Assembly: GCA_947085205.1 (NCBI GenBank)
Contig: CAMTVO010000020.1
Coordinates: forward strand, 1 to 64,000
Reading direction: 5' to 3'
Length of the DNA stretch: 64,000 nucleotides
From: an uncultured Nitrospiraceae bacterium
Lineage (GTDB): Bacteria; Nitrospirota; Thermodesulfovibrionia; Thermodesulfovibrionales; Dissulfurispiraceae
In this document: in pieces, positions 15,424 to 54,799 of the stretch
Layout: every line of letters begins with the position of its first letter
Numbering within the stretch: position 1 is the stretch's first letter
Translations under genes and position numbers: made by a program
The notes under the pieces: generated by a model
The model's database searches: none
Told to the model about the DNA's origin: nothing
Seen by the model: the letters and a program-made list of their open reading frames with translations, nothing else

Positions 15424-15441
15424 GGTAAAATTCCCTTGACT
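15424..15441 (+). promoter_or_regulatory. locus motif copy 1 (degenerate) plus -35
   Basis: GGTAAAATTCCC immediately followed by TTGACT, upstream of the first locus gene; -10 box less clear. Confidence 0.55.
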
Positions 15442-15510
15442 TTTTAATCAATTAAGTAATAATAAAGCTATAAAAATATCGAGGTCTCTAAACAGTGGAG
15501 GGGTTTTCAT

Positions 15511-16560
15511 ATGAAACGGATTGTTTTTATCGGCGTTATATTCCTGCTATTTTTTATCTTTTCTTCATATAGCGAGGGCGCTCCTATCGGCAAAATATCG
15601 GAAATAAGCGGGAAGGTCTTATTCAGGGAAAAGGCCAATGTTCCTTATGATGATGCTAAAAAAGGACTTGATCTCGAAAAGGGCTGGTGGATAAAGACAG
15701 GCGCTGACGGATGGGCGGTCTTGTCATTGTCCGACAAGAGTAAACTGACGCTCGCCAATAATACCGAGATCGAAATCACCGAGTTTGTCATAGGCAAGGA
15801 CAAAAAGGACGGCGTATTCAGCGTAACGCAGGGCAAGCTGAGGGCATCCGTTACGAGGCTTGCAGGTGAGAGGGTGAATTATAAGATAAAGAGCCCCACA
15901 GCAGTTGCCGGAATTAAAGGCACCGAGTTTATGATGATGACACAGGGTCTTGCCAATGTGTTTTTTGGAAACGAAGGACAAGTGGAGATTTCAGGTGATA
16001 CAACTCCTTCAAAACCCCTACGTGTTGATACAATGGTACAGAATACAAGGAGCTATACACCCACAGACCCGGTGAAGGTCGAGCCCGACACGCCGCTTTA
16101 CACGGCCAAGAAAAACTTCGAGGAGATAACGGAAGCCGCGCCTCCAAAGGAGTGGGAGCTTTCCGGCAACCTGCCGAACATTATAGCAAGGTGGAATATA
16201 AATTACGGCCGTTATCTTGCCGACTCCGGAAGATATGAGGAAGCCATTTACGTATTTCAGATAGCCCTCGATTTAACAAGCCTGCCTGACATAAGAAGCG
16301 ACGCGCGGCTCGAAAGAGGAGCGGTTTATTCGAGATTTTTAAGGAATCCGGAAGCCGCCCTTGCGGAATATCTTTTGGTGATAGAAACATATCCGGTAGT
16401 TACACAGAGGGAAACTGCGCTTTATCTTGCCGGCATGACCCTTTACGAACTCGGATTTGCGGATCGGGCAAAGGAAAAACTCATGCAGTATAAAAAAGAA
16501 TATCCGTCGGGAAAACATATCAGTAATGTCGAGACAATACTGAATTTGTTAAGCAAGTAG
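15511..16560 (+). CDS. exported FecR-domain + TPR protein
   Basis: Signal peptide; IKTGADG...LANNTEI...GKLRA...SPTAVAGIKGTEF FecR-type motifs; helical TPR-like C-terminus. Confidence 0.85.
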   Translation: MKRIVFIGVIFLLFFIFSSYSEGAPIGKISEISGKVLFREKANVPYDDAKKGLDLEKGWWIKTGADGWAVLSLSDKSKLTLANNTEIEITEFVIGKDKKDGVFSVTQGKLRASVTRLAGERVNYKIKSPTAVAGIKGTEFMMMTQGLANVFFGNEGQVEISGDTTPSKPLRVDTMVQNTRSYTPTDPVKVEPDTPLYTAKKNFEEITEAAPPKEWELSGNLPNIIARWNINYGRYLADSGRYEEAIYVFQIALDLTSLPDIRSDARLERGAVYSRFLRNPEAALAEYLLVIETYPVVTQRETALYLAGMTLYELGFADRAKEKLMQYKKEYPSGKHISNVETILNLLSK

Positions 16561-16593
16561 GTTTAAAAATTTTCGTTTAATCAGAGGGTTGAT

Positions 16594-17460
16594 ATGAAAA
16601 ATTGGTATGTGGCCACAGCATTAGTGTTGCTTGTTTTTACAACCAACCTCTATGCCGCGCAATCCACAATTGCGCAAGGCGAAGGCTATGCGTGCATGGG
16701 AGAGGATAAGTCCAAGAGGCAGACCGAACAGGCTGCGGAAGCCGACGCAAAGAGAAAGGCGATGGAATCCGCATCGAGCTATATAAAGAGCGAGACCCAT
16801 GTCAAAGACTTCGAGCTTGAAAAGGATCTGGTTTCGGCTTATACGAATGCAACTTTAAAGAATATCAGGGTGCTTGAGAAGGGCTGGTATAAAGACCCTT
16901 CGTCGGGAGACTGCTATAAGATAAAGATCAGCGCCGAAGTAGTTCCGGACGAAAAAGCGATGGAAAAAGTTTCGAAGTCCAAACAGGTCATGGATGATCC
17001 TTCAGCGCCCCTTGCGATTCAACTCTGGACGGATAAAAAGGAATATGCAAGCGGGGATAAGGTAAGGGTTTACATCAAAGGCAATAAGCCGTTTTACGCC
17101 GTTGTTATTTATAAAGACGTCAAAGGAGAAATGCTCCAGCTTTTGCCGAACCCTTACAGGGCGGATAACTATTTCAGCGGCGGTGTTGTTTATGAGATCC
17201 CTTCGGGCAATGACCGTTTCGAGCTTGAGGTTAGCCCTCCGTTCGGCGAAGAAAACATATATGTCTATGCAAGCACGTCCCCTTTGGGCGATATCAAACT
17301 CAAGGCTGAAGGCGGGGTTTATCAGGTTAAGACAAAAGAGAAGGACATAGGCGGCATGACGAGGGCGGTTAAACTTAAGGAAAAGACAGGCAGCAAGGCC
17401 TCGGCGGCATCTGAGTTCTTTGAAGAAAAGGCTGTTTTAAAGACAGGGAGGGAAAAATGA
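16594..17460 (+). CDS. exported protein, FlgT-N/LPP20-like domain + DUF4384-like domain
   Basis: Signal peptide; AQGEGY...AEADAKRKAME module; WTDKKEY..GD.V...QLLPN...PPFGEE.IYVYAS. Confidence 0.75.
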   Translation: MKNWYVATALVLLVFTTNLYAAQSTIAQGEGYACMGEDKSKRQTEQAAEADAKRKAMESASSYIKSETHVKDFELEKDLVSAYTNATLKNIRVLEKGWYKDPSSGDCYKIKISAEVVPDEKAMEKVSKSKQVMDDPSAPLAIQLWTDKKEYASGDKVRVYIKGNKPFYAVVIYKDVKGEMLQLLPNPYRADNYFSGGVVYEIPSGNDRFELEVSPPFGEENIYVYASTSPLGDIKLKAEGGVYQVKTKEKDIGGMTRAVKLKEKTGSKASAASEFFEEKAVLKTGREK

Positions 17461-18184
17461 AGAATGCGATCATAGCCGTATTAGCCGCGCTGTTTTTTGT
17501 TCCATGCGCTGAAATAAAGGCTGCCGAGCCTCCTTCGGAGCCGATACTCCGCATAGAGACCGGAATGCACACGTCGGCGATAAAGAGGATAGGCATCGAC
17601 GCTGAGAACAGATACCTTGCCACAGGGGCCGACGACAAAACCGTCCGCATATGGGATTTATCCACAGGCAGGCTGATAAAGATATTGAGGATTCCGGTGG
17701 GAGACGGCAACGAGGGCAAGGTTTACGCGCTTGCAATGTCTCCGGACGGCAAGACTATCGCATGCGCCGGGTGGACGGGACAGCAGTGGGATAACATGTA
17801 TGCCTCGGTCTATTTATTCGACCGTGAAAGCGGAAGACTTATAAAAAGGATAAAAGGGATATCTGCCGCCATCTTCAATCTCACTTATTCACAGGTGTGA
17901 TAAATGAGCTTGCGAGTGCTGAAAACGGAGCGATAGTCTTTGCCGCGTCAACAGGCAATCAATATTCGCTTGAAGACAGGGCATGGAGAAACGGCGCGTT
18001 CACAAAGGCGTTAGTCGAGGGCATAAGCGGAAAGGCCGATTACACAGGAAAGGGGAAGATAACAATAAACATGCTTGACCTGTATCTATCAGAGAGGGTA
18101 AAGGAATTGACAAGGGGAAAACAGACGCCGACCACAACAAAGCCGAATACTATCTCTGATTTTCCTGTGGCAGTGAAGAAATAA
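17457..18184 (+). pseudogene. internally deleted WD40-caspase gene (WD40 N-fragment 17457-17900, caspase C-fragment 17897-18184)
   Basis: Signal peptide + EPILRIETGMHT...ATGADDKTVRIWD, ending abruptly; next frame has VFAASTGNQYSLED..WRNGAFTKALVEG...QTP, the caspase C-terminal half without the His/Cys dyad. Confidence 0.8.
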
Positions 18185-20307
18185 TGAAACTTCATAGACT
18201 CTTTGTATTTTCAGGAATTGGGATTGCCGCAGCCATCCTGTCGGTTGTTATTTATGCACAGAAGATAGACTTCTTCAACTCCCTTGACCTCAAGCTCAAG
18301 GATGTGAGATTCAGGACAAGGGGAAGCATTGAGCCTGACAAAAGGGTTGTTATTGTCGCCATAGACGAAAAGAGCATAAACGAGCTCGGCAGGTGGCCGT
18401 GGGATAGGAGGGTTATTGCAAAATTGATTGAAAACCTGAACTCCTACGGTGCAAAGACCATCGCATTCGATATTATCTTTTCAGAGTCCTCAAATCCTGA
18501 ATCGGATAAGGCATTGACAGATGCCATTCAGAAGAATGGAAATGTGATAGCAGGATATTTTTTCAGGTCAGAAGGAGAGACCCCTCCAAAAGAGGCGCTA
18601 ATGTTATTAGAGCAGTCAAGGGTAAAGATCATTAAGACCATAGGTAATGTCTCCGAAGTGCCTGTTTACAGTTATCCGACAGTCGAACTCAATATCCCTT
18701 TGATTGCACGGTCTGCGAGCAGTGCAGGTTTTTTTAACATTATTCCAGATACAGACGGTATTTTAAGAGCAGCCAACATATTGATGCTTTATGATGGCTA
18801 TGTCTATCCCTCGCTGCCGCTTGCAGCATTAAGACATTATATGGAAAGAGAGATGGTACTTGAGGTCGCCAATTACGGCGTGGACAATCTCCTGATAGGA
18901 AGCTATCGCATACCATGCGACGAATCAGGAAGACTTACCCTTAATTATTACGGCAGGCAGGGGATATTCAGGACAATACCTGCTGTTGATATAATCAAAA
19001 AAAGACTTAAGCCCGGCAGTCTAGAAGATTCTCTTGTCTTTGTTGGAGCAACAGAGGTCGGACTCTCTGACCTGCGTGCAACGCCTGTTGACCCTGTACT
19101 TCCGGGCATTGAGGTTCATGCAACCGTTGTATCCAATGCCCTTCAGAACAAACTCCTAATAAAGGACGGGAGGGTAATAGCATTAGACATTTTATTTATT
19201 ATAATCTTTGCCCTTATGCTGACCACGTCGTTGAGTCTTGTCAGAAGAACGCTTGCTGCACTTATACTATTTCTGGCGGCGCTTGGACTTTACTACATTA
19301 CAAATCATCTTGTCTTTAAGCATTATCCGTTAAACACATCAGTGCTATTTCCGCTTATTTCGATAACCCTTTCGTATCTCGGCTCAGAGGCCTACAGGAA
19401 TCTCATAGAAGAAAAGCATAGCAGGTTTCTTAAAAAGGCGTTTACAAGTTATGTGTCCCCTGCCCTTGTCGGAGAGATAATGAAAAACCCGGATATGCTT
19501 AAGCTCGGAGGCGAAAAAAGGAATATAACGGTTTTATTTTCCGATATAAGGGGCTTCACAACGATTTCCGAAAAGCTTACGCCGGAAGCCCTTGTGCATT
19601 TGCTTAATCAGTATCTGGGGCCGATGACGGATATAGTTTTGCAGCACCGGGGCACGCTTGATAAATATATAGGCGACGCCATTATGGCTTTGTATAACGC
19701 CCCGCTCGATGTTGAAGATCATCCACTTCAGGCATGCAAGAGCGCCCTCGCCATGATGGAGAAACTTAAGGACTTAAACACGGATTTTAAGGCAAACGGA
19801 CTGCCTAAAGTGGATATCGGCATCGGCATAAACACGGGCGATGTGATTGTCGGCAACATGGGAACGGATGTAAGGTTCGATTACACCGCAATGGGCGATA
19901 CCGTAAACCTTTCGTCGCGGCTCGAAGGTATGAACAAGATATACAAGACGCATATAATCTTTACCGAATTCACGCTCGATAAACTCAAGACCCTCGGACT
20001 TTTGCAGCAATACGCTGGAGAGCTTAGATTCAGGGAATTGGATTTTATAAAAGTTAAGGGCAAGGACAAGCCGGTAACTATTTATGAGCTTTCCGCAACG
20101 ATGGATGGCGCTGTTGCTAAGAAATTTGAAGAGGCGTTAATGCTTTACAGAAAGCAAAGTTTTAAAGAGGCATTAGAGATATTCGAAAGGCTCGATGCTG
20201 AAAACGGCGACAAGACCGCGGGAATATTCGCCGAAAGATGTGCCGAGTTTATGGAGAGCCCTCCCGGCGCGGACTGGGACGGCGTTTATGTGGCAAAAAC
20301 AAAGTGA
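18184..20307 (+). CDS. CHASE2-domain class III adenylate/guanylate cyclase
   Basis: IVAIDEKS...GRWPWDR CHASE2 motif, 3 TM segments, TVLFSDIRGFT, DKYIGDAIMA, DYTAMGDTVNLSSRLEG, VKGK; K and D specificity residues are adenylate-type. Confidence 0.95.
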   Translation: MKLHRLFVFSGIGIAAAILSVVIYAQKIDFFNSLDLKLKDVRFRTRGSIEPDKRVVIVAIDEKSINELGRWPWDRRVIAKLIENLNSYGAKTIAFDIIFSESSNPESDKALTDAIQKNGNVIAGYFFRSEGETPPKEALMLLEQSRVKIIKTIGNVSEVPVYSYPTVELNIPLIARSASSAGFFNIIPDTDGILRAANILMLYDGYVYPSLPLAALRHYMEREMVLEVANYGVDNLLIGSYRIPCDESGRLTLNYYGRQGIFRTIPAVDIIKKRLKPGSLEDSLVFVGATEVGLSDLRATPVDPVLPGIEVHATVVSNALQNKLLIKDGRVIALDILFIIIFALMLTTSLSLVRRTLAALILFLAALGLYYITNHLVFKHYPLNTSVLFPLISITLSYLGSEAYRNLIEEKHSRFLKKAFTSYVSPALVGEIMKNPDMLKLGGEKRNITVLFSDIRGFTTISEKLTPEALVHLLNQYLGPMTDIVLQHRGTLDKYIGDAIMALYNAPLDVEDHPLQACKSALAMMEKLKDLNTDFKANGLPKVDIGIGINTGDVIVGNMGTDVRFDYTAMGDTVNLSSRLEGMNKIYKTHIIFTEFTLDKLKTLGLLQQYAGELRFRELDFIKVKGKDKPVTIYELSATMDGAVAKKFEEALMLYRKQSFKEALEIFERLDAENGDKTAGIFAERCAEFMESPPGADWDGVYVAKTK

Positions 20308-20374
20308 AAAAGTTGCTATAAAATAGAAAAGAAGGAGGTGTCGTTGTGCCTAAACCGTTTGATCGTATAACTGT

Positions 20375-23300
20375 ATGTCCGGAAGAAAAAAAATAATTTC
20401 CATGCTGATTTTATTGCTCGCATTTATTGCCAGTGCAGGCTTGGCACATGGTGGAAAGAATGAAGCGGAAAGCTTATGGGAGCTCGGTGAAAAGGCTTAT
20501 GATGCGGGCAGATATAAAGAAGCCCTTTCTTATTATGAAAAATCACTCTCTAAGTGCGCAGGGGATATTGAGTGCGCTGCCTCCAACCTTAACGGCATCG
20601 GTGCAGTTTATGAGGCGCTGGATGACGATAAAAAGGCATTAAAGTACTATGAAGATGCGCTTGCTGCAGCAAGGAAGATAAATAACAGGGATCTGATCGC
20701 AACGAACCTTTTTAATGTGGGAGCGGTCTACAGCCGAACGTTTCATCAATACGAGAAGGCATTGGTCCTCTTTGAGGAATCCTTGACGATATTCAGGGAA
20801 CTGAATGATAAGAAAAGCATCGCCATCGTTTTATTCAACACAGGCAAGGCTTTAAATTCTCTTGGCAGATATGAAAAAGCGCTGTCATATTTCAATGAAT
20901 CTCTGAAGGTAAACAGAGAGCTTAATAATCAGCAAGGCATTGCAGGAAATCTCAATCTGATAGGCAATGTGTATGCGAACCTTGGACAATATGACAAGCC
21001 GCTCTCATATTATCAGGAGGCGCTCAGGATAAATAAGAAGCTAAATATCCCGAATGAGATAGCCACAACATTAAGGAATATCGGCGACGCCTATTGCGAC
21101 CTCGTTGAATATGATAAAGCTCTCACATATTATCAGGATGCGTTGGATATACAGAAGAAACACAATTTTCGTTTTGATATGGCAGCAACCCTGACAAACA
21201 TAGGGGCTTTTTACAAAGACCTTAATCAATATGATAAAGCCCTTTCCTACTATGAGGGATCACTAAAAATAAGCAGGGAACTTGACAACTCTGCCGATAC
21301 TGCCACAAACCTGAATAACATAGGCAATGTATATGCATCTCTCGGTAAATCCGATAACGCCCTCTCTTATTATCATCAGGCATTGAGCATAGAAAAGCAG
21401 CTCAACAGGCCGCACAAAATGGCTATAACTCTTAACAACATCGGCATGGAGCATTTCCGTCTCGGCAGGTACGAACAGGCACTTTCTTATCTTAATGAGG
21501 CGCTTAAAATAGAAAGGAAGTTGAGCAATCCGCATAATATCGCTGCGAGACTGAATAATATCGGAGCTGTTTATTTGCGGCAAAAAAGATACAGAGAAGC
21601 TGAAGATGTATTTCTTGAAAGGAAAGATATAGGAAAGAGAATCACAAAGACCAGATTAATACATGCCGGATTAATAGAAGTTTATCTTGCAACAAAAAGA
21701 TACGATGAGGCATTGGCCTTGCTGAGAGAACTGCCTCCAAACTGGAGGGATAGCAGGAATCGCCGCATGGAATACCACACACAGTATGGTCTGGCATTAA
21801 AAGGCAAGGGACTACTCAGGGAGTCTGCGCAGGAATTGTTAAAGGCGGTTTCAATAGTTGAAGAGATAAGGCGTTCAGTGGGTGAGAAGAGTGAGTTTTT
21901 TGCCGGTGGCGGTTATATCGGCAGGTTAACACCTCACAGAGAGCTTGTAGCAGTTCTCTCAGAAATGGCTCTCAGAGGAGAAAGACCTGATGATAGCTTT
22001 AAACCTTTCGGCAGGGATTTGGCATCCGCCGCATTTTATTTTTCGGAGTTTACAAAGGCAAGGGCGTTTCTTGAGACAATGGCAGGCTCTGCAAGGAAAT
22101 ATGACGAGCTTGAAATTCCTTCTGAAATAAAAAACAGAGAGGCAGATATTCTAAAGGAGCTTTCATCAATAGAAGACAACTGGGAAAATGCCTATTCAAA
22201 AGGCGAGGCTGTTTTCAAAAGGCTTTCGCAGAGAAAAGAAGAGCTTAATAGAGAGCTAAATTCTCTGATTTCCTCCATAAGAAAAGATTTCCCTGCATAT
22301 GCTGCCGTAAATTATCCAAAGCCCATGCCGGCTGAAGACATGTCATTAACGGCAAATGAAGTCTTAATAGAGTTCGGCATAAGCAATGATGCAGTTGTTG
22401 TTTTTGTTGTAAGAAAAGGCGGTGTAAATAAAATCCATAAAATAAACATCTCTAAAGAAGAACTGACCGAGAAAGTAAAGAAATTTATAGAACCTTTAAA
22501 TTCTGGAAGGCACTCTGAATTTTCAACAAAGCTCGCAAAAGAGCTTTACGATATGCTGCTTTCAGGGTCACTGAAAGATGTTAAGGATTCGGAAAAACTG
22601 ATAATTGTCCCTGACGGAATACTCGGTCTTTTGCCATTTGAGGCATTGGTGATAAATGCAGGAAAAGACTATAAAGGTAATCTCTTTGTTGGCGACAAAT
22701 GGACAATAACGTACAGCCAGTCTGCAACAGCGCTTGCATTAACAAGGCTTTTGAAGCCCTCCGAAGCTAAAAAGCCTCTTTTTGCTTTGGGCAATCCTGT
22801 ATATGACAAATCAGACCCGAGATATATAGCATATAAAAAAGGCGGCTCTCAACAAATTGCTGCAAAGGATGTTAAACAATATGCTTACAGGGGCATCACC
22901 GTACTGCCGAAGGGGGAAAGGGAATGGGAAGAGGTAATATATTCGCCCCTTCCAGAAACAGAGGATGAGGTCAGAGAGATAGCAAAACTGTTTGGTGTAA
23001 AACCTGAGATGCCGGAGGTGCTTTTGAATATTTCGGCAAATGAAACAAATTTCAGGAATACCTTTCTTAAAGACTATCGCTACATACATCTTGCAACCCA
23101 TGCAGACTTGCCCGGAAAGGTTCAGGGCATAAAGGAGCCGTTTATAATTCTCGGTCAGGTCGAAAACAGGGGGCAGGATGATGGATTCCTCACCCTCACC
23201 GAAGTCCTCGAATTGAAACTTGACGCTGACATGGTGGTTTTGTCCGCCTGCTCCACGGGCAAAGGCAAAATGATGGAAGGTGAAGGTGTTGCCAATTTTG

Positions 23301-23527: not shown

Positions 23528-23539
23528 GGTAATTTTCAC
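23528..23539. promoter_or_regulatory. locus motif copy 2 (reverse-complement form)
   Basis: GGTAATTTTCAC is the exact reverse complement of GTGAAAATTACC; nearest TATAAT (23555) is not at canonical spacing and a REP starts at 23563. Confidence 0.55.
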
Positions 23540-27423: not shown

Positions 27424-27526
27424 GGCCAATAAAAAAAGAAGCAGCAAGGCAAGTTTTCAGGCGGGAAGGTATTGATTGCAATTTTTTAATCTATGATTCC
27501 CTGCTTTTATATAGATAATAAGAGAT

Positions 27527-27567
27527 GTGAAAATTACCTTTACGTGCGAGATTGGCGCTGATATAAT
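27527..27567 (+). promoter_or_regulatory. locus motif copy 3 plus sigma70 promoter
   Basis: GTGAAAATTACC-TTTACG-N17-TATAAT. Confidence 0.8.
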
Positions 27568-28580: not shown

Positions 28581-28619
28581 AAGAATTATACGACTGGAAA
28601 AATTTTCATGGGAGGGGAT

Positions 28620-29816: not shown

Positions 29817-29819
29817 CCT

Positions 29820-29957
29820 ATGAAGCCAGTAATTACTCAAGGGGACAGGACCATGATAATCAATGCAGGGCACAAAGGCGCTGTTGCAAAAGACGGCAAG
29901 TTATCAGAACCAGAAAAGATTGATTTATCAAAAATAGAAAGGTGGTGGGAAAAGTGA
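29820..29957 (+). pseudogene. orphan C-terminal tail, FecR-domain-like
   Basis: MKPVITQGDRTMIINAGHKGAVAKDGKLSEPEKIDLSKIERWWEK*; resembles the last strands of FecR-domain proteins (from recall, not searched). Confidence 0.4.
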
Positions 29958-29959
29958 AA

Positions 29960-31000: not shown

Positions 31001-31024
31001 CCGCTCAATTAAGGAGATATCGCC

Positions 31025-32062: not shown

Positions 32063-32088
32063 GAGGGCTTGCTAACGAAGGAAAATCA

Positions 32089-34486: not shown

Positions 34487-34528
34487 GTGAAAATTACCTT
34501 GACCCCATAGGCCTATATTCCTTAAGAT
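34487..34528 (+). promoter_or_regulatory. locus motif copy 4 plus sigma70 promoter
   Basis: GTGAAAATTACC-TTGACC-N18-TAAGAT; upstream CCCTGCTTTTA shared with copy 3. Confidence 0.75.
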
Positions 34529-42407: not shown

Positions 42408-43106
42408 ATGAAAAGAGACAAAAATGCGGCATTGATTATGGAGTTTCTCAAAGAGCTCCCTGTCTTCAAGGGTCTCTCTGACAGCCATTTAATGCAGTTG
42501 TCCGGCGATTTCATTATCCGCAATATAAATAAAGGCAAGACCATATTTTACCAGTCGGACAACAGCACAGACCTTTACATCGTCCTTGAGGGCGCAGTGA
42601 GGGCATCTCTCCTGAACAATGAAGGAGAGGAGATGATACTTGCGATATTCTGCAAGGGTGACTTTTTCGGAGAGATGAGCCTCCTCGACGGCAAGCCGAG
42701 GTCTGCAACAATGATAGCAATGGAAGACGCATCTCTCGGCATACTAAAAAGGGAGAAGTTCCTCCTTGCAGTCAAAAATAACCCCATGATTGCTATTGAC
42801 CTGCTCTCGGCAATTGTCCAGAGGATGAGAATGGCAAACGGGATGATAGAGTCGCTCGCCTTTTTAGATGTCGGTCAGAGGCTTGTGAGGCTTCTTATGC
42901 AGATAGCCCGGACAGAGGGAGAGAAAGATAAGAGCGGTTTTTTCAGGATAAAAAGGCTTACCCACAGGGAACTTGCAGCACACACAGGCGCATCAAGGGA
43001 AGCCATAACCAAGGTTATGAAGGTACTTGCCTTTAGAGATGTAGTAAAAGAGGAAGACGGTTATTTCCTGATTTCTCCTGATGCAGAAGATGTGTATAAC
43101 GAATAA
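42408..43106 (+). CDS. CRP/FNR-family cyclic-nucleotide-binding transcription regulator
   Basis: Phosphate-binding cassette FFGEMSLLDGKPRSAT; HTH LTHRELAAHTGASREAITK; divergent from the mla operon. Confidence 0.93.
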   Translation: MKRDKNAALIMEFLKELPVFKGLSDSHLMQLSGDFIIRNINKGKTIFYQSDNSTDLYIVLEGAVRASLLNNEGEEMILAIFCKGDFFGEMSLLDGKPRSATMIAMEDASLGILKREKFLLAVKNNPMIAIDLLSAIVQRMRMANGMIESLAFLDVGQRLVRLLMQIARTEGEKDKSGFFRIKRLTHRELAAHTGASREAITKVMKVLAFRDVVKEEDGYFLISPDAEDVYNE

Positions 43107-43126: not shown

Positions 43127-43167
43127 GTGAATTTTCACTTGACACTATAAGTACGCCATTCTACACT
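43127..43167 (+). promoter_or_regulatory. locus motif copy 5 (symmetrical) plus sigma70 promoter
   Basis: AA-GTGAATTTTCAC-TT, then TTGACA-N17-TACACT, directly downstream of the crp-like gene. Confidence 0.85.
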
Positions 43168-45418: not shown

Positions 45419-45459
45419 GTGAAAATTACCTTTACATAGGCTTTCAGAGGGAGTAAACT
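45419..45459 (+). promoter_or_regulatory. locus motif copy 6 plus sigma70 promoter
   Basis: GTGAAAATTACC-TTTACA-N17-TAAACT. Confidence 0.8.
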
Positions 45460-46712: not shown

Positions 46713-46739
46713 GAAACATATTTTGAAGAGGAGGAGATT

Positions 46740-47660
46740 ATGAGAAGGACAATATTTATCATGGTGTTGTTAATAATGGGGTTGACTGGCATCGCGTTTG
46801 CCCAGCAGCCGCCGTCAACTGCGGCCATTGACGCGAGGTTTGCGGCTGCCAACGAATGGTTGAACAAGAACAATCTTTCCGTTACGGCAGCGCCGGAGCA
46901 GGCGTTTATCAACGACTATATATTGGTCGTCGGGGAGGGTTTGCCGTCACCAAGCGCAAAGTCCCCCACGCAGAGGCGGTTAACCGCTGAAAGGGCTGCA
47001 ACAGCGGTTGCTTATCGCCAGCTGACCGAATTCATAGAGGGGTTTGCCCTTGTTGGAGATACCCTCGTTAAGGATGCGGAGCTTCAGTATGACGTGATAA
47101 GGGTGGCTGTCGCAGGTTTTGTAAAAGGCGCACAACTGGTCTATAAGGAATACAATCCTCAGGAAGACTCTGCCCTCGTGATAGTTAAAATAGGGATGAC
47201 CGGTCCGCAAAGCTTTGCCAAGACAATGTATGAGAAGATGCTGGGCGATCCGAAAATCAAAAAAGATATTATAGGAGTGCCGGGACCTGAATACAGGCAC
47301 AAACCGGTTCCGCTCGAAGAAAAATATGACGGCCTTATTATCGATGCCACGGGACAGAGCTTCAGGCCGGCGCTGATAAACAGGATATTCACGCCCAAGG
47401 GAGACGTGCTCTACGACCCGTCGAAGATAAGCCAGAAGATTTTGGTAGAGCAAGGATGCGGCGAATACACGAACAGCGTTGAAAAGGCAAAGGCCGCGCT
47501 GGAGTCAAGAGGGGTGAAGAATCCCCTTGTCGTAACCGCTTCCGGGACCGTTACGGCATCGGATTTACAGGTAAGCAACGATGACGCCGTAAGGATATAT
47601 TCCGCAAACCAGAAGGCCAATTTTTTTGCCTCGGCTAAGGTGGCTTTTGTATTGAAGTAA
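46740..47660 (+). CDS. exported LPP20-like protein
   Basis: Signal peptide AFA-Q; VVGEG...AERAATAVAYRQLTEFIEG; YDGLIIDA...PALINRI. Confidence 0.7.
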   Translation: MRRTIFIMVLLIMGLTGIAFAQQPPSTAAIDARFAAANEWLNKNNLSVTAAPEQAFINDYILVVGEGLPSPSAKSPTQRRLTAERAATAVAYRQLTEFIEGFALVGDTLVKDAELQYDVIRVAVAGFVKGAQLVYKEYNPQEDSALVIVKIGMTGPQSFAKTMYEKMLGDPKIKKDIIGVPGPEYRHKPVPLEEKYDGLIIDATGQSFRPALINRIFTPKGDVLYDPSKISQKILVEQGCGEYTNSVEKAKAALESRGVKNPLVVTASGTVTASDLQVSNDDAVRIYSANQKANFFASAKVAFVLK

Positions 47661-47663
47661 TAA

Positions 47664-48173
47664 ATGAATACAACACAGCATACAGGATGTGGGTTTCATG
47701 CAATGAGTATTTATCGTGTCTTAGTGCCCTCATCCTTTATGCTGATTATCCTATTATTATTTTTTACTCCTGTTTTCTCACCTGTTTTCTCATCGGAAGG
47801 GGTGCAGAAATATAAACCCCTTTCAGAAGAACATATCCAGAAACTGAAAAAGATAGCCGGATTTATTGCCGTTGAGATAAACAGGAGAGGTATAAAGACC
47901 GTAGAGGTCAGGGAGTTCACGGATATAAGGGGCAGGCCGTCGGCTGTTGGAAAGGATCTTGCAAAAGAGTTTGAAAGACAGATGGCTGCGGCGGAGGGTA
48001 GAGGCTTTGCTATAATAAAGAACAATGCAAAGGCTGTCGTTACAGGAACTCTTACGCCGTTCAAGGAAAGAGAGAAATGGCAGATTAAGATAGAGGTAAT
48101 ATCGGCAGAAACAGGAGCGATAATTACGGCATACACAGGGATTTTGAAAAAGACTAAAGGGGTGAAGAAGTGA
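47664..48173 (+). CDS. exported FlgO/CsgG-like alpha/beta protein (start uncertain)
   Basis: TVEVREFTDIRG...GKDLA...AVVTGTL...EVISAETGAII. Confidence 0.55.
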   Translation: MNTTQHTGCGFHAMSIYRVLVPSSFMLIILLLFFTPVFSPVFSSEGVQKYKPLSEEHIQKLKKIAGFIAVEINRRGIKTVEVREFTDIRGRPSAVGKDLAKEFERQMAAAEGRGFAIIKNNAKAVVTGTLTPFKEREKWQIKIEVISAETGAIITAYTGILKKTKGVKK

Positions 48174-48330
48174 GACGGATATGTGTAGCGGCAACAATCC
48201 ACCTGTCAAGGGAGCCATCTGGATTGACAAAATCCGTTTTTATAGGGAATAGGCACTTCTTTTTTATCTTCAAAAACAGCTATTTTTGTTGGATAATATA
48301 ATTGGATAATATAAGCAGGAGAGCAAAAAT

Positions 48331-49976
48331 TTGTGGAGTTGTATTGAGAAAGAGAAAATTTTTTGTATTTTATATTTTGTTTTTTTGTTTCTAAATAATC
48401 CTGCCCATGCCAAGACTCTTATCCTCGAAGGCAAATTAAACAGCAATATTTCCGTGAATCAGCAGATAGGTTTTGGTGTAGATAAGCCTTTATCGAGGCT
48501 CACTTTTAAATTTGCCCTTCCTTCTGAATTTGCCAATAAAGCCGTTTCTCAAAAAACACACGAGTTCAATATCAAATTTGACCCTCAGCCAGTGAAGGTT
48601 GATGATGCAACCGATGAGTTCGGAAATAGATTTAAAGTAGTTACATGGAACGATCTGAACAGGGATGTGATGGTAAACATAATCTTTGAGACGAATATAA
48701 AATCAGAGCTTTCTGCGATGGAAAGCAAAACGCCATTCCCCCTTAATCCAATCCCTCATGGTGAAAAGACTTATCTGAAACCTACGGAACTGGTTCAGAG
48801 CAGCAGCCCTGAGATCACTGCCCTTTCAAAAAAACTTACATCAGGCGCGGCAACGGAATACGAGGCTGTTAACGCAATATTGAACTATGTTGTCGACAAT
48901 GTAAAATATACCTACAACCCTCCGCAATTCGATGCCTTATATACGATAAAGACAAGAACCGGCAACTGCCAGAACTTTGCCCATTTATCTATGGCATTAC
49001 TAAGGGCGGCAGGAATACCTGCAAGGATTGTAGGAGGCATTAGCTTAAAACAGCCTCTGAAGGTTCCTGTGAGTGGCAGTGATTTCCTTGTCCAGAGCAT
49101 GGGACAGGGAGGACATGCATGGATGGAGATATATTTCCCTGACCTTGGCTGGCTCTCTTACGACCCACAGCAGTCGAAGCAGTTCACATCTTCGCGGCAT
49201 ATCAAGCAGACACACGGACTTGACTCTGATGATATAAACGATACATGGAAGGCATCCCCATATTTACCTGCCTATAGTGAACTCGTTGACGCAAAATTTC
49301 TGGAGGATATGGTGGCTCTGAAATTAAAGTCTTCAGAGAAATATCCCAAGGCATATCTTTTAAGCAATAATTTTCTTTCAAAGGCAGAGATAAAACCGCC
49401 AGAAAAACCTTCTGTGCCTGAGATTCCAAAACTGCCTCCGGGTAAAGTTATTGAATTCGGGAACATGGAATTTCCGAGTTTTGTTAATATTTACCAGATT
49501 GTAGGAGACAAAGGTGTAAAGATACTCGATAAAGAAACTGCGGAATATGTGACATCGAAGTATGTTTATTCGCAGGCATTTGAGATAGATGAACCCCTCG
49601 AAATAGATGTAGTCTCATTAGCCATGAGAAAATTCGGAGGCGACGGAACATTGTATATAGACCTTGTAGCGGATGATAAGAGAAGACCGAGTCTTTCCGG
49701 GTTTCGCTCGAATCCGATTTTCATAGAGAATATTAAAAAAAGACCCGGCTATTACTGGGTGGATTTTGCTTTTTCATCCGATACGCCTCTAAAAATAAAG
49801 AAGGGAAGGTACTGGATAGTCATGAGGCATTCAGGAGAGGTGATAATGAACTGGTTCTATATACCCGGCAATCCTTATGGAGACAGCGACGATACCCGCT
49901 CTACATTAAAGGTTACAGATGGGAAGATATTTTAAATTTTGATTTTGTTTTTAAGGTAAAGGCAAGAAGGGGGTAA
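48331..49976 (+). CDS. exported transglutaminase-like protein, copy 1, with a 1-bp deletion near the 3' end
   Basis: GNCQNFA, GHAWMEIY, WLSYDP triad; versus paralog 58794 one A is missing at 49908-49910, so the ORF stops at 49935 instead of 49976. Confidence 0.85.
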
Positions 49977-50053
49977 GATAAATATATTGTAAAATAAAGG
50001 ATTTTATGGGATGATTAAAATAAATAAGCAATCATAAATTAAGGGGGATAACT

Positions 50054-50668
50054 ATGACAGAAATAAAGACAAAAGCTATTCTTATTGGACTATTTGTGCT
50101 TTTTTGTATGACATTCATAGGATGCGCATTTGTTGACCAGAAAGTAGACCTGGCCTATGAAAGAACTGTCAATGCGAGAGGCGGCTCCGGCGAAGTATTT
50201 ATCGCAAAGCCGAAAGAACATCATAATCTTAATAAAAAGGCGAACGGCTTGGTTATCGGGACTGTAAAAAACGCAATGGGGATGAAGACAGCGGATGTGG
50301 TTACGGAAAATAATATCGGAGACTGGATTGTGGGCGCATTGGTGCAGGAGTTGAGCGTTGCAGGATATAATACAAAAACAGTATCGGCGCTGCCGCATGA
50401 TGTATCAAAAGGTCTGGATTTGACGGTTTTGAAGGTATTTGTGGATCAAGACCCCGGATTCTGGACGGTCGGCGCCATAAGCGATGTGCAGTTTACAGTC
50501 GAAATATGGAAAAACAGCATTAAGGCAAAGGTATTGAATATTGCTGCAAAAGGAGATGACCGCTCAATGATGGGTTCAGCAGAAACCAAGGCGATTTCCT
50601 TACGCAAAGCAATGCAGGCTGCAATGCAGCAGGCTGTGCCTGAGATAATAAAGACATTGGAATACTAA
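50054..50668 (+). CDS. hypothetical lipoprotein (YajG-like)
   Basis: Lipobox FIGC; IGTVKNAMGMKTADV...ALVQELSVAGY. Confidence 0.65.
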   Translation: MTEIKTKAILIGLFVLFCMTFIGCAFVDQKVDLAYERTVNARGGSGEVFIAKPKEHHNLNKKANGLVIGTVKNAMGMKTADVVTENNIGDWIVGALVQELSVAGYNTKTVSALPHDVSKGLDLTVLKVFVDQDPGFWTVGAISDVQFTVEIWKNSIKAKVLNIAAKGDDRSMMGSAETKAISLRKAMQAAMQQAVPEIIKTLEY

Positions 50669-50679
50669 AGGAGAAAAAA

Positions 50680-51837
50680 ATGGCAACAGGTTTTCGCATT
50701 AATATTTTGTTGTCAATTATTCTCTCTATAGCAGCCGGCTGCAGCATGTATGAATTCAAAGACCCCACCGGCGCTAAAATGCAGATTGCATATGAGACGC
50801 CTGAACAAGGTAAAGCGTCTGCCGACAGACCTAAGAAACAAAAAGAAGAGCCACTTATAGACGAAAAACTTCCTCCACTCCGTCCCGACACCTATGCAAT
50901 AGTAATCGGCATAGACTACAAAAACAGGCAGGACATACCAAACCTCCAATATGCATCTACAGACGCAAAAAAAATCTACAACATACTCACAGATGCACGA
51001 TACGGAGGAGTGCCTAAAGAAAATGCAATACTACTTCTCAACGAAAAAGCAACAAGAAACGAAATGGTATCAGCATTGAGGAAGATAAAGAACTGGGATG
51101 GATATGTGTATGTATATTACTCAGGACACGGAGCGCCCAAGACAAAAGGAGACAAATTCATAGACGCCTTTTTAGTGCCCAATGACGTAATAATAACCGA
51201 CCCTGAGGCAATGGAAGACACAGCAATAAAAGTATCGTATTTACAAGAGCTTATAGATACATCCAATGCAAAAGGAGTAATGCTTGCATTGGATGCCTGT
51301 TTTTCAGGAGGAGGAAAATCCATAGTGCCAAAGGGAGGGAAGCCCTTAGTAGGAATGATAGTAAGCTCTGAGATAATAAAACCAAGAGGCACAGGAAAAG
51401 TAATAATCACATCATCAGCAACCAACCAGCAATCATGGGAAGACGAAGCAGAGCTAAAGGGAGGCATATTCAGCCATTATTTATTGGAGGGACTAAAAGG
51501 CAAAGCAGGCAAAGACATATGGGTGAAAGTAGATGAACTTGCAGAATACATAAAAGAAAACGTACCTAAAGCAGCGAGGAAACTCAAAGGAATGGAACAG
51601 ACGCCGCAGATAACAGGAAAGGCTGACTTTGCAGTAACGAGGAACTGGGAAAAGGCAAAAGTAATGGACATAGAGATAGCGAGGAACAAACTAAAGAGTG
51701 TATTTGAAAAAGGAGTAATAACAGCAGAGCAGCTCAGCAGGGCAATGGATGAATTAAAGAAGCAGACAAGGACAAAGACACTTGAGGCATTTTTGGAAGG
51801 AAAGATAGATGAGAGGAAGTTCGGGGAGTTGTATTGA
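50680..51837 (+). CDS. caspase-family (C14) lipoprotein
   Basis: Lipobox AAGC, AIVIGIDY, YYSGHG and LDACFSG dyad, QTP, SHOCT-like tail (KGVITAEQL). Confidence 0.92.
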   Translation: MATGFRINILLSIILSIAAGCSMYEFKDPTGAKMQIAYETPEQGKASADRPKKQKEEPLIDEKLPPLRPDTYAIVIGIDYKNRQDIPNLQYASTDAKKIYNILTDARYGGVPKENAILLLNEKATRNEMVSALRKIKNWDGYVYVYYSGHGAPKTKGDKFIDAFLVPNDVIITDPEAMEDTAIKVSYLQELIDTSNAKGVMLALDACFSGGGKSIVPKGGKPLVGMIVSSEIIKPRGTGKVIITSSATNQQSWEDEAELKGGIFSHYLLEGLKGKAGKDIWVKVDELAEYIKENVPKAARKLKGMEQTPQITGKADFAVTRNWEKAKVMDIEIARNKLKSVFEKGVITAEQLSRAMDELKKQTRTKTLEAFLEGKIDERKFGELY

Positions 51838-51838
51838 G

Positions 51839-52651
51839 ATGAAAAGATTTTTAATAATGATTCTGCTTTTGATGCCTGTTTTCTCTTATGCCTCTGAAAA
51901 GCCCGTATGGGTAGAGGCGGAGGGAGAGGCATACATGAGCGAGATTGACACTCCGAAAGAGGTCATTGCGAGAGCAAAAAAGGACGCCCAGAGCAAGGCA
52001 GTCGAAAAGGCGGTAGGCGTGTTTATAAGATCACATACCCTCGTCTCGAACAGCCAGCTTGCGGAAGATCTCATCTACGCCGCTGTGAGGGGGAAGATAG
52101 AGAAGACCGAGATAATTAAAAAGGGATGGGATGATAAGGACAGGAATCTTTACAAAATAAGGCTCAAAGCCCTTATAGAGCCTGTCTATCCTGAAAAAGG
52201 GCACGGCATATCGATCAAGCTTTCGCTTTCAAAATCCGTAATGAAAGAAGGCGATGAGGTAAAGATATTTTATCAGGCAAACAAAGAATGTTATGTATAT
52301 ATCTTTTCAGTTGCTGCAGACGGCTCGGTTACGCTGCTTATGCCGAATTCGATGAATCAGGAGAATCACATAAAAGCGAATAAAGCATATGAATTCCCTG
52401 TAGGGGGGAGCAGCATACGCTTAAAGGCTTTATTTTTGCCTGATTATAAGGAAAAAGTCGCCGAGGAAAAAATTAAAATAATAGCCACAAAAAAGAGAGA
52501 GGAGATTGTGCCGCTCGGATTTCAAGAAGGTATGTTCAGGGTATACGATGCGAAGTCCACAGGCATGATAAGCGACCTTGTTAAAAAACTTAACCAGCTT
52601 GAACCTGCTGACTGGGCAGAGGCAACTGCGGTTTATACGATTAAAAGATAA
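51839..52651 (+). CDS. exported FlgT-N/LPP20-like + DUF4384-like protein
   Basis: EAEGEAY...AKKDAQSKAVEKAVGV; EGDEVKI...CYVYIF...DGSVTLLMPN...EKIKIIAT. Confidence 0.78.
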   Translation: MKRFLIMILLLMPVFSYASEKPVWVEAEGEAYMSEIDTPKEVIARAKKDAQSKAVEKAVGVFIRSHTLVSNSQLAEDLIYAAVRGKIEKTEIIKKGWDDKDRNLYKIRLKALIEPVYPEKGHGISIKLSLSKSVMKEGDEVKIFYQANKECYVYIFSVAADGSVTLLMPNSMNQENHIKANKAYEFPVGGSSIRLKALFLPDYKEKVAEEKIKIIATKKREEIVPLGFQEGMFRVYDAKSTGMISDLVKKLNQLEPADWAEATAVYTIKR

Positions 52652-52652
52652 G

Positions 52653-52693
52653 GATAATTTTCACCTTCCAAGAAGTTTTTTCTGGTATATAAT
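52653..52693 (+). promoter_or_regulatory. locus motif copy 7 plus -10 box
   Basis: GATAATTTTCAC-CTTCCA-N17-TATAAT; same geometry with a poor -35. Confidence 0.7.
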
Positions 52694-52776: not shown

Positions 52777-53127
52777 ATGCAAGCTGTAAGACATGAGGTA
52801 TTAAATCTTACTGAAGCTGAAAAGCTTGCATTAAATGAAGTTATAGCTGCCTTAAAAAGAGACTGGCCTTCTGTTAAATTCAAGCTATTTGGCTCAAAGG
52901 TAAATGGAACCTCTGACGAAGAGTCGGATTTAGACCTTTTAATTATGCTTCCCTGTCATGTAACTAATGATATAAGGCGGCAGATAGTCCACAAGGTTTT
53001 CGATATAAATCTTAAATATGAAACTAATATTAGTGTATTTATTGTTTCAGAAGATGAATGGCAAAAAGCTCCTCTTTCTCTTCTTCCTATTCATGCATTT
53101 ATTGAAGAGGAAGGGGTTTCCTTATGA
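52777..53127 (+). CDS. minimal nucleotidyltransferase (MNT)
   Basis: LFGSKVNG...SDLDLL motif, 116 aa. Confidence 0.9.
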   Translation: MQAVRHEVLNLTEAEKLALNEVIAALKRDWPSVKFKLFGSKVNGTSDEESDLDLLIMLPCHVTNDIRRQIVHKVFDINLKYETNISVFIVSEDEWQKAPLSLLPIHAFIEEEGVSL

Positions 53128-53523
53128 GTAACAAAGAGGAACTAAAGGAACTTATCCGATATTGGTTTGAAAAATCGCATGAATCTCTTGACGCAGCCCG
53201 TGATGAACTGAAGGCAGGCCGTCTTTCCTTTTCGGTGAACCGAATTTATTATTCTTGTTTTTATGCGGTCAGCGCAATCTTGCTTCAAGAAAAACTTCGG
53301 TTTAAGAAGCACTCCGGTGTGAGGGGCCGTATTACATCAACATCTCGTCAAATCAGGGAAAGTAAGTCATGAGCATGGGAAACTGTATGACGAACTTTTT
53401 GAAGCTCGCCAGAGAGGCGATCATATAGAGTTTGTCAGCTTTGAGGAAGAACAGGTAAAAGACTGGCTTCAACAGGCAAATCAATTTGTTGAGGCAATTA
53501 AGCGTTTAATCGAAAATGACTGA
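53124..53523 (+). pseudogene. HEPN-domain protein with a +1 frameshift
   Basis: NRIYYSCFYA...KKHSGV; removing one G from GGGG (53323-53326) gives RAVLHQHLVKSG...LFEARQRGDH...IKRLIEND*. Confidence 0.85.
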
Positions 53524-53550
53524 CTTTTTTCAGGAGGTGGGGTTACGAAA

Positions 53551-54762
53551 ATGAAGGGTAATTTAATTTCTTTGATCAGCGTCATCTTTATTCTGCTTGC
53601 GGGCATGGCGATGACAGGGTGTGTGACAACAACAGCGAGAACACCACTAATGCAAGCTGTAGAACAAAGCGACAGCAACGCTATCCGAGCTTTGCTTGAT
53701 AAGGGAGCAGATATAAACGAACAAAGCGACTATGATATAGGACCCGGAGGCAAGGGTTGGACTGCCTTACATCTTGCCGCAGTGAAAGATGATATAAAAG
53801 TCATTCGTTTATTGTTGGACTATGGTGCAGACCCAGGCATTACAACTAAATTTGGTTGGACACCATTGAAGTGGGCGGAGCAGAAAGGCAATAACTTTGT
53901 TGCAGGGATGCTCAAGGAGGCTATGGAAAAACGCTATGTGGTTGACAAGAAACCTACCCATATTACGACTGAAAAACCATTGAAATCCGATGTTGACGAA
54001 CTTCTAATATTTGTAAACGAGCATAAGGTTATCGGAGATCAGGATATAGCCATTGTCATTGGCATAGAAAAGTATCAGAATATCCCGAAGTCCGACTACT
54101 CAGCAGGTGATGCAAAACTCGTAAAGTCATATTTTAAGGCACTCGGGTTTGCAGAGAGAAACATAGAATTCATCACAGATGAAAGGGCGACAAAATCATC
54201 CATTGAAAAATCCATAGAGGCATGGCTTCCTAACAGGGTTAAAAAAGACAGTAAGGTTATTGTCTATTATTCAGGACACGGAGCGCCTGAGCCAAAGACA
54301 GGAGACGCTTATATTGTCCCATTTGACGGAGACCCGAATTATCTTGAGGTTACCGGGTATCCATTAAAGAGGCTTTACGATAAACTTGGGAAATTGCAAG
54401 TTGCAGAGGTTGTAGTTCTTCTTGACTCATGCTTCTCAGGCGCAGGCGGCAGGAGTGTTTTAGCAAAAGGAGCAAGACCATTGGTGATGATGACAGAGGC
54501 ATCGGTAATATCGTCAAATATGGCTATCCTTTCTGCAACACAAGGCACACAGATAAGCACATCATCACCTGAAAAAAGGCATGGGGTATTCACATATTAC
54601 TTTCTCAAGGCATTAAAAGAAGGAAAGAAGACAATTGCTGAGATTTATGAATACATCAAACCGTTGGTGGAGGACGAGGCAAAGACTCTTAATGTCCAGC
54701 AAAGCCCGAGCATAAGTCCTGATGCGGAGAAACTGAAGGGGCGGTTTATTTTGAGACGGTGA
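53551..54762 (+). CDS. ankyrin-repeat + caspase (C14) lipoprotein
   Basis: Lipobox MTGC, TPLMQA, GWTALHLAA, GWTPL ankyrins; YYSGHG and LDSCFSG dyad; QSP. Confidence 0.92.
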   Translation: MKGNLISLISVIFILLAGMAMTGCVTTTARTPLMQAVEQSDSNAIRALLDKGADINEQSDYDIGPGGKGWTALHLAAVKDDIKVIRLLLDYGADPGITTKFGWTPLKWAEQKGNNFVAGMLKEAMEKRYVVDKKPTHITTEKPLKSDVDELLIFVNEHKVIGDQDIAIVIGIEKYQNIPKSDYSAGDAKLVKSYFKALGFAERNIEFITDERATKSSIEKSIEAWLPNRVKKDSKVIVYYSGHGAPEPKTGDAYIVPFDGDPNYLEVTGYPLKRLYDKLGKLQVAEVVVLLDSCFSGAGGRSVLAKGARPLVMMTEASVISSNMAILSATQGTQISTSSPEKRHGVFTYYFLKALKEGKKTIAEIYEYIKPLVEDEAKTLNVQQSPSISPDAEKLKGRFILRR

Positions 54763-54799
54763 AAATTACCTTGACTTCATGGCTCAGGCAGGGTAGTTT
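54759..54799 (+). promoter_or_regulatory. locus motif copy 8 plus sigma70 promoter
   Basis: GTGAAAATTACC (contains the upstream TGA stop)-TTGACT-N17-TAGTTT. Confidence 0.75.

Follow-up and report, generated by a model that had tools for sequence, protein, structure and literature searches.

The window analysed here is the 64,000 nucleotides of C20:1-64000, from the draft genome G000 of an uncultured Nitrospiraceae bacterium (1.89 Mb in 65 contigs, 90% complete). Between 15.4 and 60.4 kb it contains a co-directional array of genes for exported and envelope products. An earlier note on this DNA had pointed to a 12-bp element, GTGAAAATTACC, at the promoters of the locus, and to a protein of the CRP/FNR family encoded among its genes (42408-43106), which it proposed to activate the whole locus. 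Our analysis indicates that the element is almost certainly a functional, conserved promoter-proximal signal. We put at about an even chance that it is in addition the operator of this locus-encoded, cyclic nucleoside monophosphate (cNMP)-binding CRP-family protein, which would bind as a dimer near -41.5 and activate in a class II-like manner.

Five exact copies of GTGAAAATTACC are present in the window, four on the forward strand (27527, 34487, 45419 and 54759) and one as the reverse complement (23528). By comparison, 100 dinucleotide-preserving shuffles gave a mean of 0.01, and none of the 100 reached five. The whole 1.89-Mb draft genome contains six copies, the sixth (C41:25822) also at a promoter; the motif is thus rare outside the locus. 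Three variants complete the set: GTGAATTTTCAC at 43127, GATAATTTTCAC at 52653 (one mismatch to the reverse complement) and GGTAAAATTCCC at 15424, which differs from the 12-mer at three positions in either orientation. The positions and sequences reported earlier were thus correct, and so was the placement of the sites at gene boundaries, since all eight are either intergenic or overlap a stop codon. A further copy with one mismatch, at 58346, lies within a gene and has no promoter context.

Looser versions of the motif are not enriched on their own. Allowing up to two mismatches, we found 11 matches against 6.9 expected, and the degenerate palindrome GKKAAWWTTMMC occurs 14 times in the genome against 11.8 in shuffles, seven of the 14 falling in this 45-kb locus. 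We consequently dropped GKKAAWWTTMMC as a genome-wide model in favour of a composite that includes the first bases of the -35 box. The non-random part is the exact core and its placement. We also counted k-mers, unbiased by the motif, in the locus's 17 intergenic regions, and every top-ranking shared word turned out to be a fragment of it (e.g., GTGAAAAT/ATTTTCAC, in 7 of the 17). The consensus can be written GTGAA-WW-TT(A/C)(C/A)C, or GTGAA-WW-TTMMC. GTGA is its most constant part, and the A/T centre varies (AA, TT, AT or TA). The copy at 43127, previously called symmetric, is so in its GTGA/TCAC arms, not in its centre. Among the papers listed by a full-text search for four forms of the 12-mer in the library searched, none appears to be about a bacterial regulatory site, and a literature search on this type of locus in Nitrospirota listed general surveys of caspases and WD40 proteins, with no description of the regulon among the results listed.

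The eight sites, with the genes they serve and the three proteins on which the argument turns, are as follows.

15424..15435, + strand: variant site GGTAAAATTCCC, then TTGACT, 16-17 bp and AATAAT/ATAATA; serves the operon 15511-23515 (FecR-like / DUF4384 / WD40 / CHASE2-cyclase / TPR-CHAT).
15511..16560, + strand: exported protein with FecR domain and TPR, encoded at the head of the cyclase operon; its ortholog in the relative G044 has a motif promoter.
18184..20307, + strand: CHASE2-domain class III nucleotide cyclase (PF05226, E 8.5e-65; PF00211, E 2.2e-25), behind the 15424 site.
23528..23539, + strand: exact motif reversed (GGTAATTTTCAC), then -35 TTCCAA, with ambiguous placement of the -10; 13 nt past the stop of the CHAT gene and 5' of the DUF4140/DUF4139 gene (23732-25351).
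27527..27538, + strand: exact motif, then TTTACG, 17 bp and TATAAT; serves a row of exported proteins without known family (27591-33672).
34487..34498, + strand: exact motif, then TTGACC, 18 bp and TAAGAT; serves a 68-amino-acid membrane protein (34558-34764) and a 1386-amino-acid WD40-caspase (34841-39001).
42408..43106, + strand: CRP/FNR-family regulator of 232 amino acids; cNMP-binding domain with FFGEMSLLDGKPRSAT, C-terminal helix-turn-helix (HTH) with recognition helix GASREAITK.
43127..43138, + strand: GTGAATTTTCAC, then TTGACA, 17 bp and TACACT; 21 nt past the stop of the CRP-like gene, serving the FlgT_N-like (43193-44407) and CsgG-like (44429-45400) genes.
45419..45430, + strand: exact motif, then TTTACA, 17 bp and TAAACT; serves the SLH-domain lipoprotein operon 45498-52651 (in order: SLH, two unknowns, transglutaminase-like, unknown, caspase, DUF4384).
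52653..52664, + strand: variant GATAATTTTCAC, reverse, then CTTCCA, 17 bp and TATAAT; 5' of a nucleotidyltransferase/HEPN pair (52777-53372) and an ankyrin-caspase gene (53551-54762).
54759..54770, + strand: exact motif, then TTGACT, 17 bp and TAGTTT; serves GNA1162-like/NosD/TPR (54819-57128), caspase (57162-58784) and transglutaminase-like (58794-60407) genes.

The element stands at a fixed distance from predicted promoter boxes. Six of the nine copies in the genome are directly followed by a hexamer that matches TTGACA at four or more of its six positions, and eight of the nine have a -10 hexamer of the form xAnnnT 16-18 bp further on. Both hexamers reach at least 4/6 in five of the nine, compared with 0.75% of random genome positions. 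Across relatives, 36 sites were picked by the motif plus the first four bases of the -35, and 30 of these have a -10 hexamer starting with TA exactly 17 bp past the -35; since the -10 was not part of the selection, this evidence is independent of it. Assuming a start 6-8 nt past the -10 (the boxes being themselves predicted), the 12-mer would span about -47 to -36, with its centre at -41.5. The arrangement first described for this window, with the motif directly before the -35 and -10 boxes, is thus found in G000 and extends to its relatives. A generic promoter scan picks 43139 and 45431 by itself; its overall yield is weakly above shuffles (37 versus 27.6).

Forward copies (GTGAA distal) are followed by good -35 boxes, and reverse copies (GGTAA/GATAA distal) by poor ones (TTCCAA, CTTCCA, ATCCCA) and a perfect TATAAT, with 23528 ambiguous. 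We considered placing the -35 inside the reverse motif (TTCACA) and rejected this, because the spacing to TATAAT would be 22 bp. A sigma-54 reading of TGGCAC in the variants of G027 and G018 was likewise rejected, TTGC being absent at the right distance. As to the surroundings of single copies, those at 27527 and 34487 have about 30 further upstream bases in common (CCCTGCTTTTA..ATAGATA.TAATA; 27497-27526 and 34457-34486), and these two promoters may therefore be a recent duplicate pair. A GATAATA-like word is also found 5' of the 45419 and 23528 copies, at variable distance. At 54759-54762, the TGA stop of the ankyrin-caspase gene forms part of the GTGA arm of the motif.

Of 61 relatives, near and more remote, 27 have the exact 12-mer; a backwards control pattern gave scattered single matches. 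Using the composite (motif plus first bases of the -35, pattern GTGAAWWTTMMCTTKA), we found 247 sites in the order, spread over 87 of the 301 genomes sampled. Outside the order, the composite is present in 39 of 60 genomes of a distant family, f20, and in 4 of the 133 genomes sampled from other families. Alignment of nine orthologous SLH-lipoprotein promoters returned noise except for an invariant GTGAA..TTACCTTTACA block, which is the motif together with TTTACA. Looking at the gene that comes first behind each of 32 sites in relatives, we recovered the families seen in the window: five encode SLH proteins, four TPR proteins with one more of CsgG/FlgO-TPR type, and two DUF4139/4140 proteins. 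FlgT_N-like, WD40, caspase-FGE, DUF4384 and LCCL proteins also occur among the 32, as do a LuxR-type regulator, a PD-(D/E)XK nuclease, a glycosyltransferase and a beta-propeller; ten have no family. Single orthologs follow the same pattern. A site of the 54759 type precedes the orthologs in G008, G045, G145 and G057, the WD40 ortholog lies behind a site in G069, and the DUF4139/4140 orthologs in G018 and G069 have a forward site. The element is therefore found in both orientations, at a fixed position relative to sigma-70-type boxes, and conserved at orthologous genes of other genera and families, across two deep Nitrospirota lineages of which the second is separate at class level.

Could such an element be read by RNA polymerase itself, as an A/T tract resembling an UP element with its flanks, with no further factor involved? 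Its A/T-rich centre and its constant company of sigma-70-type boxes would agree with this, as would its position, the proximal UP subsite lying at about -46 to -38. The invariant positions, however, are the G/C-containing arms, and it is the centre that varies. Moreover, the element is limited to one accessory gene set, without housekeeping genes among the 32 downstream genes scanned, and falls to chance level (4/133) in genomes of the phylum that lack the regulator. We thus consider a factor-independent promoter module very improbable.

The copies might also be leftovers of duplication or recombination: promoter cassettes that travelled with mobile or toxin-antitoxin modules and have no regulatory meaning at present. 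Toxin-antitoxin pairs do adjoin three sites, the 27527 and 34487 copies share their upstream bases, and in several genomes a cassette made of the motif promoter and a signal peptide (described below) is joined to unrelated DNA. Relics would hardly account for orthologous flanks that have diverged to noise around a 12-mer and -35 that stay invariant across families, for a -10 that keeps its position in 30 of 36 independent sites, or for sites before orthologous genes in two deep lineages. The probability that remains for this explanation is close to negligible.

The cassette itself was found at C41:25822-25833 of G000 (L131) and at L025, L026, L034 and L040. It consists, in order, of the reverse motif, ATCCAT, a 17-bp spacer, TATAAT, a leader and a signal peptide starting MRYFMK, and full copies head an exported TPR protein. 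In several genomes the junction with unrelated DNA follows the signal peptide, or comes earlier still, past the ribosome-binding site; in one case the DNA joined is a nucleotidyltransferase/HEPN pair. Its spacer contains a perfect palindrome (CTTTCATGAAAG or TTTTCATGAAAA), which may be a second operator. We looked for a noncoding RNA behind the reverse copies (C41 and relatives) and rejected it: Rfam gave no match in five loci at E up to 0.01, and the frames there read as the gene of the exported TPR protein instead.

Which protein might bind the element? The CRP-like protein is the sole cytoplasmic transcription-factor-like protein found in the locus, parts of toxin-antitoxin modules aside. 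It contains a cNMP_binding domain (PF00027, E 2.5e-22, residues 56-141 of a 250-amino-acid reading) and a C-terminal Crp-type HTH (HTH_Crp_2, PF13545, E 2.9e-8), and aligns over both domains with solved Crp-family proteins (4ev0 at E 5e-28, also CAP). The S-R-E-A-I-T-K helix noticed earlier is indeed present, together with an intact phosphate-binding cassette (G-E...R-S/T-A), in which FFGEMSLLDGKPRSAT aligns to the cassette of 4ev0. Both features are strongly kept: the cassette F-G-E...R-S-A in 14 of 14 aligned sequences of the order (G000 and 13 others) and in eight f20 orthologs, and the helix S-R-E-A/G-x-x-K in the same 14 and eight. In E. coli CRP, the R-E pair of the recognition helix reads GTGA. 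The protein scores below the cut-offs of the NCBIfam equivalogs for CRP, NtcA, FNR and FixK, the best being CRP (99.7 bits against a cut-off of 266) and the others lower; it forms a separate subfamily of the CRP/FNR family. Among the genomes searched, orthologs of at least 41% identity occur only in Nitrospirota, and the nearest named records with close relatives of the gene are Nitrospirota / Thermodesulfovibrionales metagenome-assembled genomes.

The distribution of this protein follows that of the element. Orthologs in the sample of the order were called at E of at most 1e-45, with strict orthologs at about 50% identity or more. The composite is present in 54 of 71 genomes with an ortholog versus 33 of 230 without, and two or more sites in 42 of 71 versus 10 of 230; among genomes with a strict ortholog the figure is 45 of 51. 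In f20, where the protein is 41-49% identical, 33 of 39 genomes with an ortholog have the composite versus 6 of 21 without. The 133 other genomes of the phylum contain no ortholog, and four of them carry the composite. The two are also physically close. Of 27 loci of the order, 11 have a full 12/12 site within 60 bp past the stop of the regulator gene, among them at least one pair that is the same DNA. In f20, a full match plus TTGAC lies 10-11 bp past the stop in three of eight loci, with one more at 11/12 (protein identity in these loci 41-48%), and more distant homologs have related words at the same spot (GGGAATCCTCCC-TTGACA and GGTATTTTCACC-TTTACT). Four f20 loci (L208, L209, L210 and L213) show a second conserved word, TGTGAAAT, about 17 nt past the -35 and over the expected -10. 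Upstream of the regulator gene, none of the 27 regions has a full site within 200 bp (best 10/12 or less), and an autoregulatory site 5' of the CRP-like gene was therefore rejected. We take the counts of co-occurrence as showing linkage, not binding: the genomes compared share ancestry, so they do not count as independent, and the regulator passes on together with its targets as one accessory set.

Several observations weigh against a CRP-like activator acting on the locus through this element. The first is the confounding just mentioned of co-occurrence with shared inheritance and kinship. The second concerns the operator. Its commonest form is asymmetric, with half-sites GTGAA and GGTAA (the halves symmetric at 3/6 positions), and its arms stand as GTGA-N4-TCAC/TACC and not as xTGA-N6-TCAx; the half-site spacing is, as had been remarked, 2 bp shorter than the GTGA-N6-TCAC of E. 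coli, and shorter by the same amount than in FNR or Clr sites, whereas the helix of the protein resembles that of the CRP main cluster, to which the N6 spacing belongs. Third, six genomes with a strict ortholog have no composite, and three genomes show the opposite. G045 (100% complete, in three contigs) has four composite sites and no intact ortholog; the one full CRP/FNR protein it encodes is HcpR-like and has another helix. G134 also has four sites and no intact ortholog, and G469 has nine sites with only a 32%-identical paralogue, in which the helix is R-E-T-V-T-R and the cassette arginine is absent. Fourth, most forward sites are followed by a near-consensus -35 (TTGACA, TTGACT, TTTACA). 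Activator-dependent class II promoters usually have weak -35 boxes, so this is atypical for them and leaves room for repression or modulation. Finally, the regulon is not confined to the locus. The idea of a regulon coextensive with the whole locus holds insofar as the motif marks the promoters of the locus and is conserved at orthologs, and fails insofar as the sites of relatives reach beyond it: in G018, G058 and G069 they lie over several contigs or hundreds of kilobases, a scatter that speaks for a dispersed regulon and not for a local repeat.

Two of the regulator-less genomes deserve a closer description. G045 retains a reduced homologous locus (FecR, cyclase, DUF4384, transglutaminase, GNA1162/TPR and caspase). 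Between one of its promoters and the ortholog in its sister G145 the spacer is scrambled, yet the 12-mer is untouched in both. This is a hint either that selection still acts on the site in the regulator's absence or that the regulator was lost very recently. In G134, a remnant of the CRP-like gene is found at G134:C141:3663-4003, consisting of residues 5-72 and 179-230 (72-75% identity, one stop) around an internal deletion, immediately upstream of an intact site at 4023.

These genomes are part of the case for a different trans-acting factor, encoded elsewhere or not recognisable as a DNA-binding protein. The CRP-like gene would then be a co-inherited member of the set, or a neighbour on the target side, and the multi-site regulons of G045, G134 and G469, which lack an intact ortholog, would be read by the other factor. 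The non-canonical spacing and asymmetric consensus would fit as well, and any two parts of one accessory set would be expected to co-occur across genomes. Yet the window locus and the reduced locus of G045 have no other candidate DNA-binding protein in common. The most invariant part of the element is GTGA, and the R-E pair that is generally known to read it is kept in all orthologs examined; even where the protein has diverged to 41% identity, a site is still found directly behind the regulator gene. On balance we find another factor unlikely, and the CRP-like protein, judging from its helix and its distribution, is probably the binder of the element, well short of certainty.

Whether a bound CRP-like protein would activate is a separate matter. 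It might mainly repress or modulate promoters that are intrinsically active, with a cyclic nucleotide releasing or strengthening its hold. Forward sites with a near-consensus -35 and a 17-bp spacer would be expected to fire unaided, the loss of a repressor is easier to tolerate in genomes that keep intact promoters without the regulator (G045, G134), and the second TGTGAAAT element of f20 covers the -10 region. On the other hand, the 12-mer ends at -36 and leaves both hexamers uncovered, placement fixed at -41.5 in both orientations is generally taken as the hallmark of class II activation, and the reverse sites, with their poor -35 and perfect TATAAT, look activator-dependent. Repression as the main effect seems to us improbable, and for activation by the binder we would allow an evenly balanced chance.

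We can now outline how the locus might work. The CRP-like protein would bind the element as a dimer centred near -41.5, its R-E...K helix presumably reading the GTGA/TCAC arms. Compared with canonical CRP sites, each half-site would be shifted 1 bp towards the dyad, giving a 6+2+6 geometry. Once bound, the regulator would activate, in the manner of class II, and not repress. The candidate source of the cyclic nucleotide, from its domains, is the CHASE2 cyclase (18184-20307) of the first operon, which may respond to a periplasmic signal sensed together with the FecR-like protein. Since the cyclase itself lies behind the variant site, a feed-forward loop would result. The cyclase operon has a site both in G000 (the variant at 15424) and in G044, and a cyclase ortholog is retained in G045. 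As an observation on G044, two sites of opposite orientation lie about 45 bp apart 5' of the FecR ortholog (L023), forming divergent promoters that face the FecR-like gene and a 479-amino-acid protein without family. That the cyclase is the input of the regulon is a tentative proposal, held with somewhat less than even confidence. To the same tentative degree, we envisage a Nitrospirota-specific branch of CRP with a compact 12-bp operator, coupling a periplasmic CHASE2/FecR sensor and a cyclic nucleotide to transcription of an exported caspase/CHAT/WD40/H-ring-like envelope system.

Signal peptides start most of the unknown proteins of the array, and the products of the regulon are almost wholly exported or of the envelope: CsgG/FlgT/GNA1162-like proteins, an SLH anchor, transglutaminase-like proteins, caspases, CHAT, WD40 and TPR proteins. 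In the array we identified FecR-like and DUF4384 proteins, WD40 proteins and the CHASE2 class III cyclase; TPR-CHAT, DUF4140/4139 and PDZ-thioredoxin proteins and the 1386-amino-acid WD40-caspase; and FlgT_N-like, CsgG-like and GNA1162-like proteins, the SLH lipoprotein, two transglutaminase-like proteins and four further caspases. It is broken by an opposite-strand Mla transporter and by one cytoplasmic regulator, the CRP/FNR-family protein.

Other features of the array are recorded for completeness. Three toxin-antitoxin-like modules lie between operons: a PIN protein with a small upstream open reading frame (ORF; 33751-34445), the nucleotidyltransferase/HEPN pair (52777-53372), directly downstream of the 52653 motif promoter, and a PIN_3 protein (60419-60805). 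At 17457-18184, a 147-amino-acid WD40 ORF overlaps a 95-amino-acid ORF with a weak C-terminal match to caspase (EACC1-associated type); together they resemble what is left of a longer WD40-caspase gene, such as the one at 34841-39001. A 2-kb stretch (30001-32000) has 56% G+C compared with 40-48% in the rest of the window, and spans an exported protein of unknown type (29942-31000) and the start of the PDZ-thioredoxin gene. With Rfam, the one match in the whole window was a tRNA (14280-14352).

Bacterial caspases, CHAT proteases and giant WD40/TPR proteins are widespread, and hardly anything is known of when they are produced and of their role. If the reading favoured here is true, a 45-kb set of mostly uncharacterised exported proteins becomes one testable regulon, with the CHASE2 cyclase as predicted input and eight promoters as output. 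On the more tentative reading with the CHASE2/FecR sensor, a second messenger would switch on an arsenal of bacterial caspases, in an arrangement shared by two classes of the phylum. The locus would also be a naturally occurring case in which to test how much change in half-site spacing the CRP fold tolerates, and the 16-base search pattern finds regulon members in uncultured Nitrospirota, including some far from the core locus.

How does this system compare with known ones? In class II CRP/FNR promoters of E. coli, the site is centred at -41.5 and has the consensus TGTGA-N6-TCACA. The regulator described here resembles E. coli CRP in its cNMP domain and its Crp-type HTH with the R-E pair, and the element resembles the class II sites in its quasi-palindromic GTGA/TCAC arms and in its centre at about -41.5 from the predicted start. 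It differs in that the arms are 2 bp closer (GTGA-N4-TCAC) and the commonest form is asymmetric, in that the core is clear of the -35 hexamer, which is often near consensus, and in that the regulon is an envelope/caspase set and not carbon metabolism. The solved groups of 4ev0 (a Thermus thermophilus Crp-family regulator), 3r6s/4byy/4cyd and 3d0s align over the full length (E 5e-28 to 8e-24) and have in common with our protein the G-E-M-S-L-L-D...R-S-A cassette and the G-x-S-R-E-T-V start of the helix; identity is about 30%, and their sites are reported to be of canonical CRP spacing. PrfA of Listeria monocytogenes is not known to use a cyclic nucleotide, whereas the protein described here keeps the F-G-E...R-S-A cassette.

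The box of PrfA, itself a factor of the Crp family, is nevertheless the closest precedent for the geometry: it is given as tTAACanntGTtAa, a 6+2+6 palindrome centred at -41.5 (PMC3443378). If our element is written (t)GTGAA-nn-TTCAC(a), its layout is likewise 6+2+6 and its predicted centre is the same, with a different arm sequence. The compact geometry is thus unusual and not without precedent. For the proposed input, the closest parallel is the cascade of Sinorhizobium meliloti, in which NsrA, CHASE2 cyclases (CyaD1/CyaD2/CyaK) and Clr act in line, and Clr recognizes GTNNCNNNNGNNAC (HGTYHCNNNNGRWACA), a 16-bp palindrome with canonical spacing (PMC10127613). The same paper gives RE(T/M)VGR as the helix of the main Crp cluster, unlike the R-E-A-I-T-K found here (PMC10127613). 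As in the Clr cascade, a CHASE2 sensor fused to a class III cyclase domain (18184-20307) and a Crp-like cNMP receptor occur in one module, and the promoters that the regulator is expected to turn on would likewise be limited in number. In the window, an exported FecR-domain/TPR protein heads the cyclase operon, and the targets carry GTGAA-WW-TTMMC and not GTNNCNNNNGNNAC (PMC10127613). Clr moreover belongs to cluster G, and its targets and organism are unrelated to those discussed here. Against a CRP/FNR family and CHASE2-Crp cascades that are already known, what this locus would add is a regulon of probable CRP type, specific to its lineage, in which the operator is compact and the caspase/CHAT/envelope cargo unusual.

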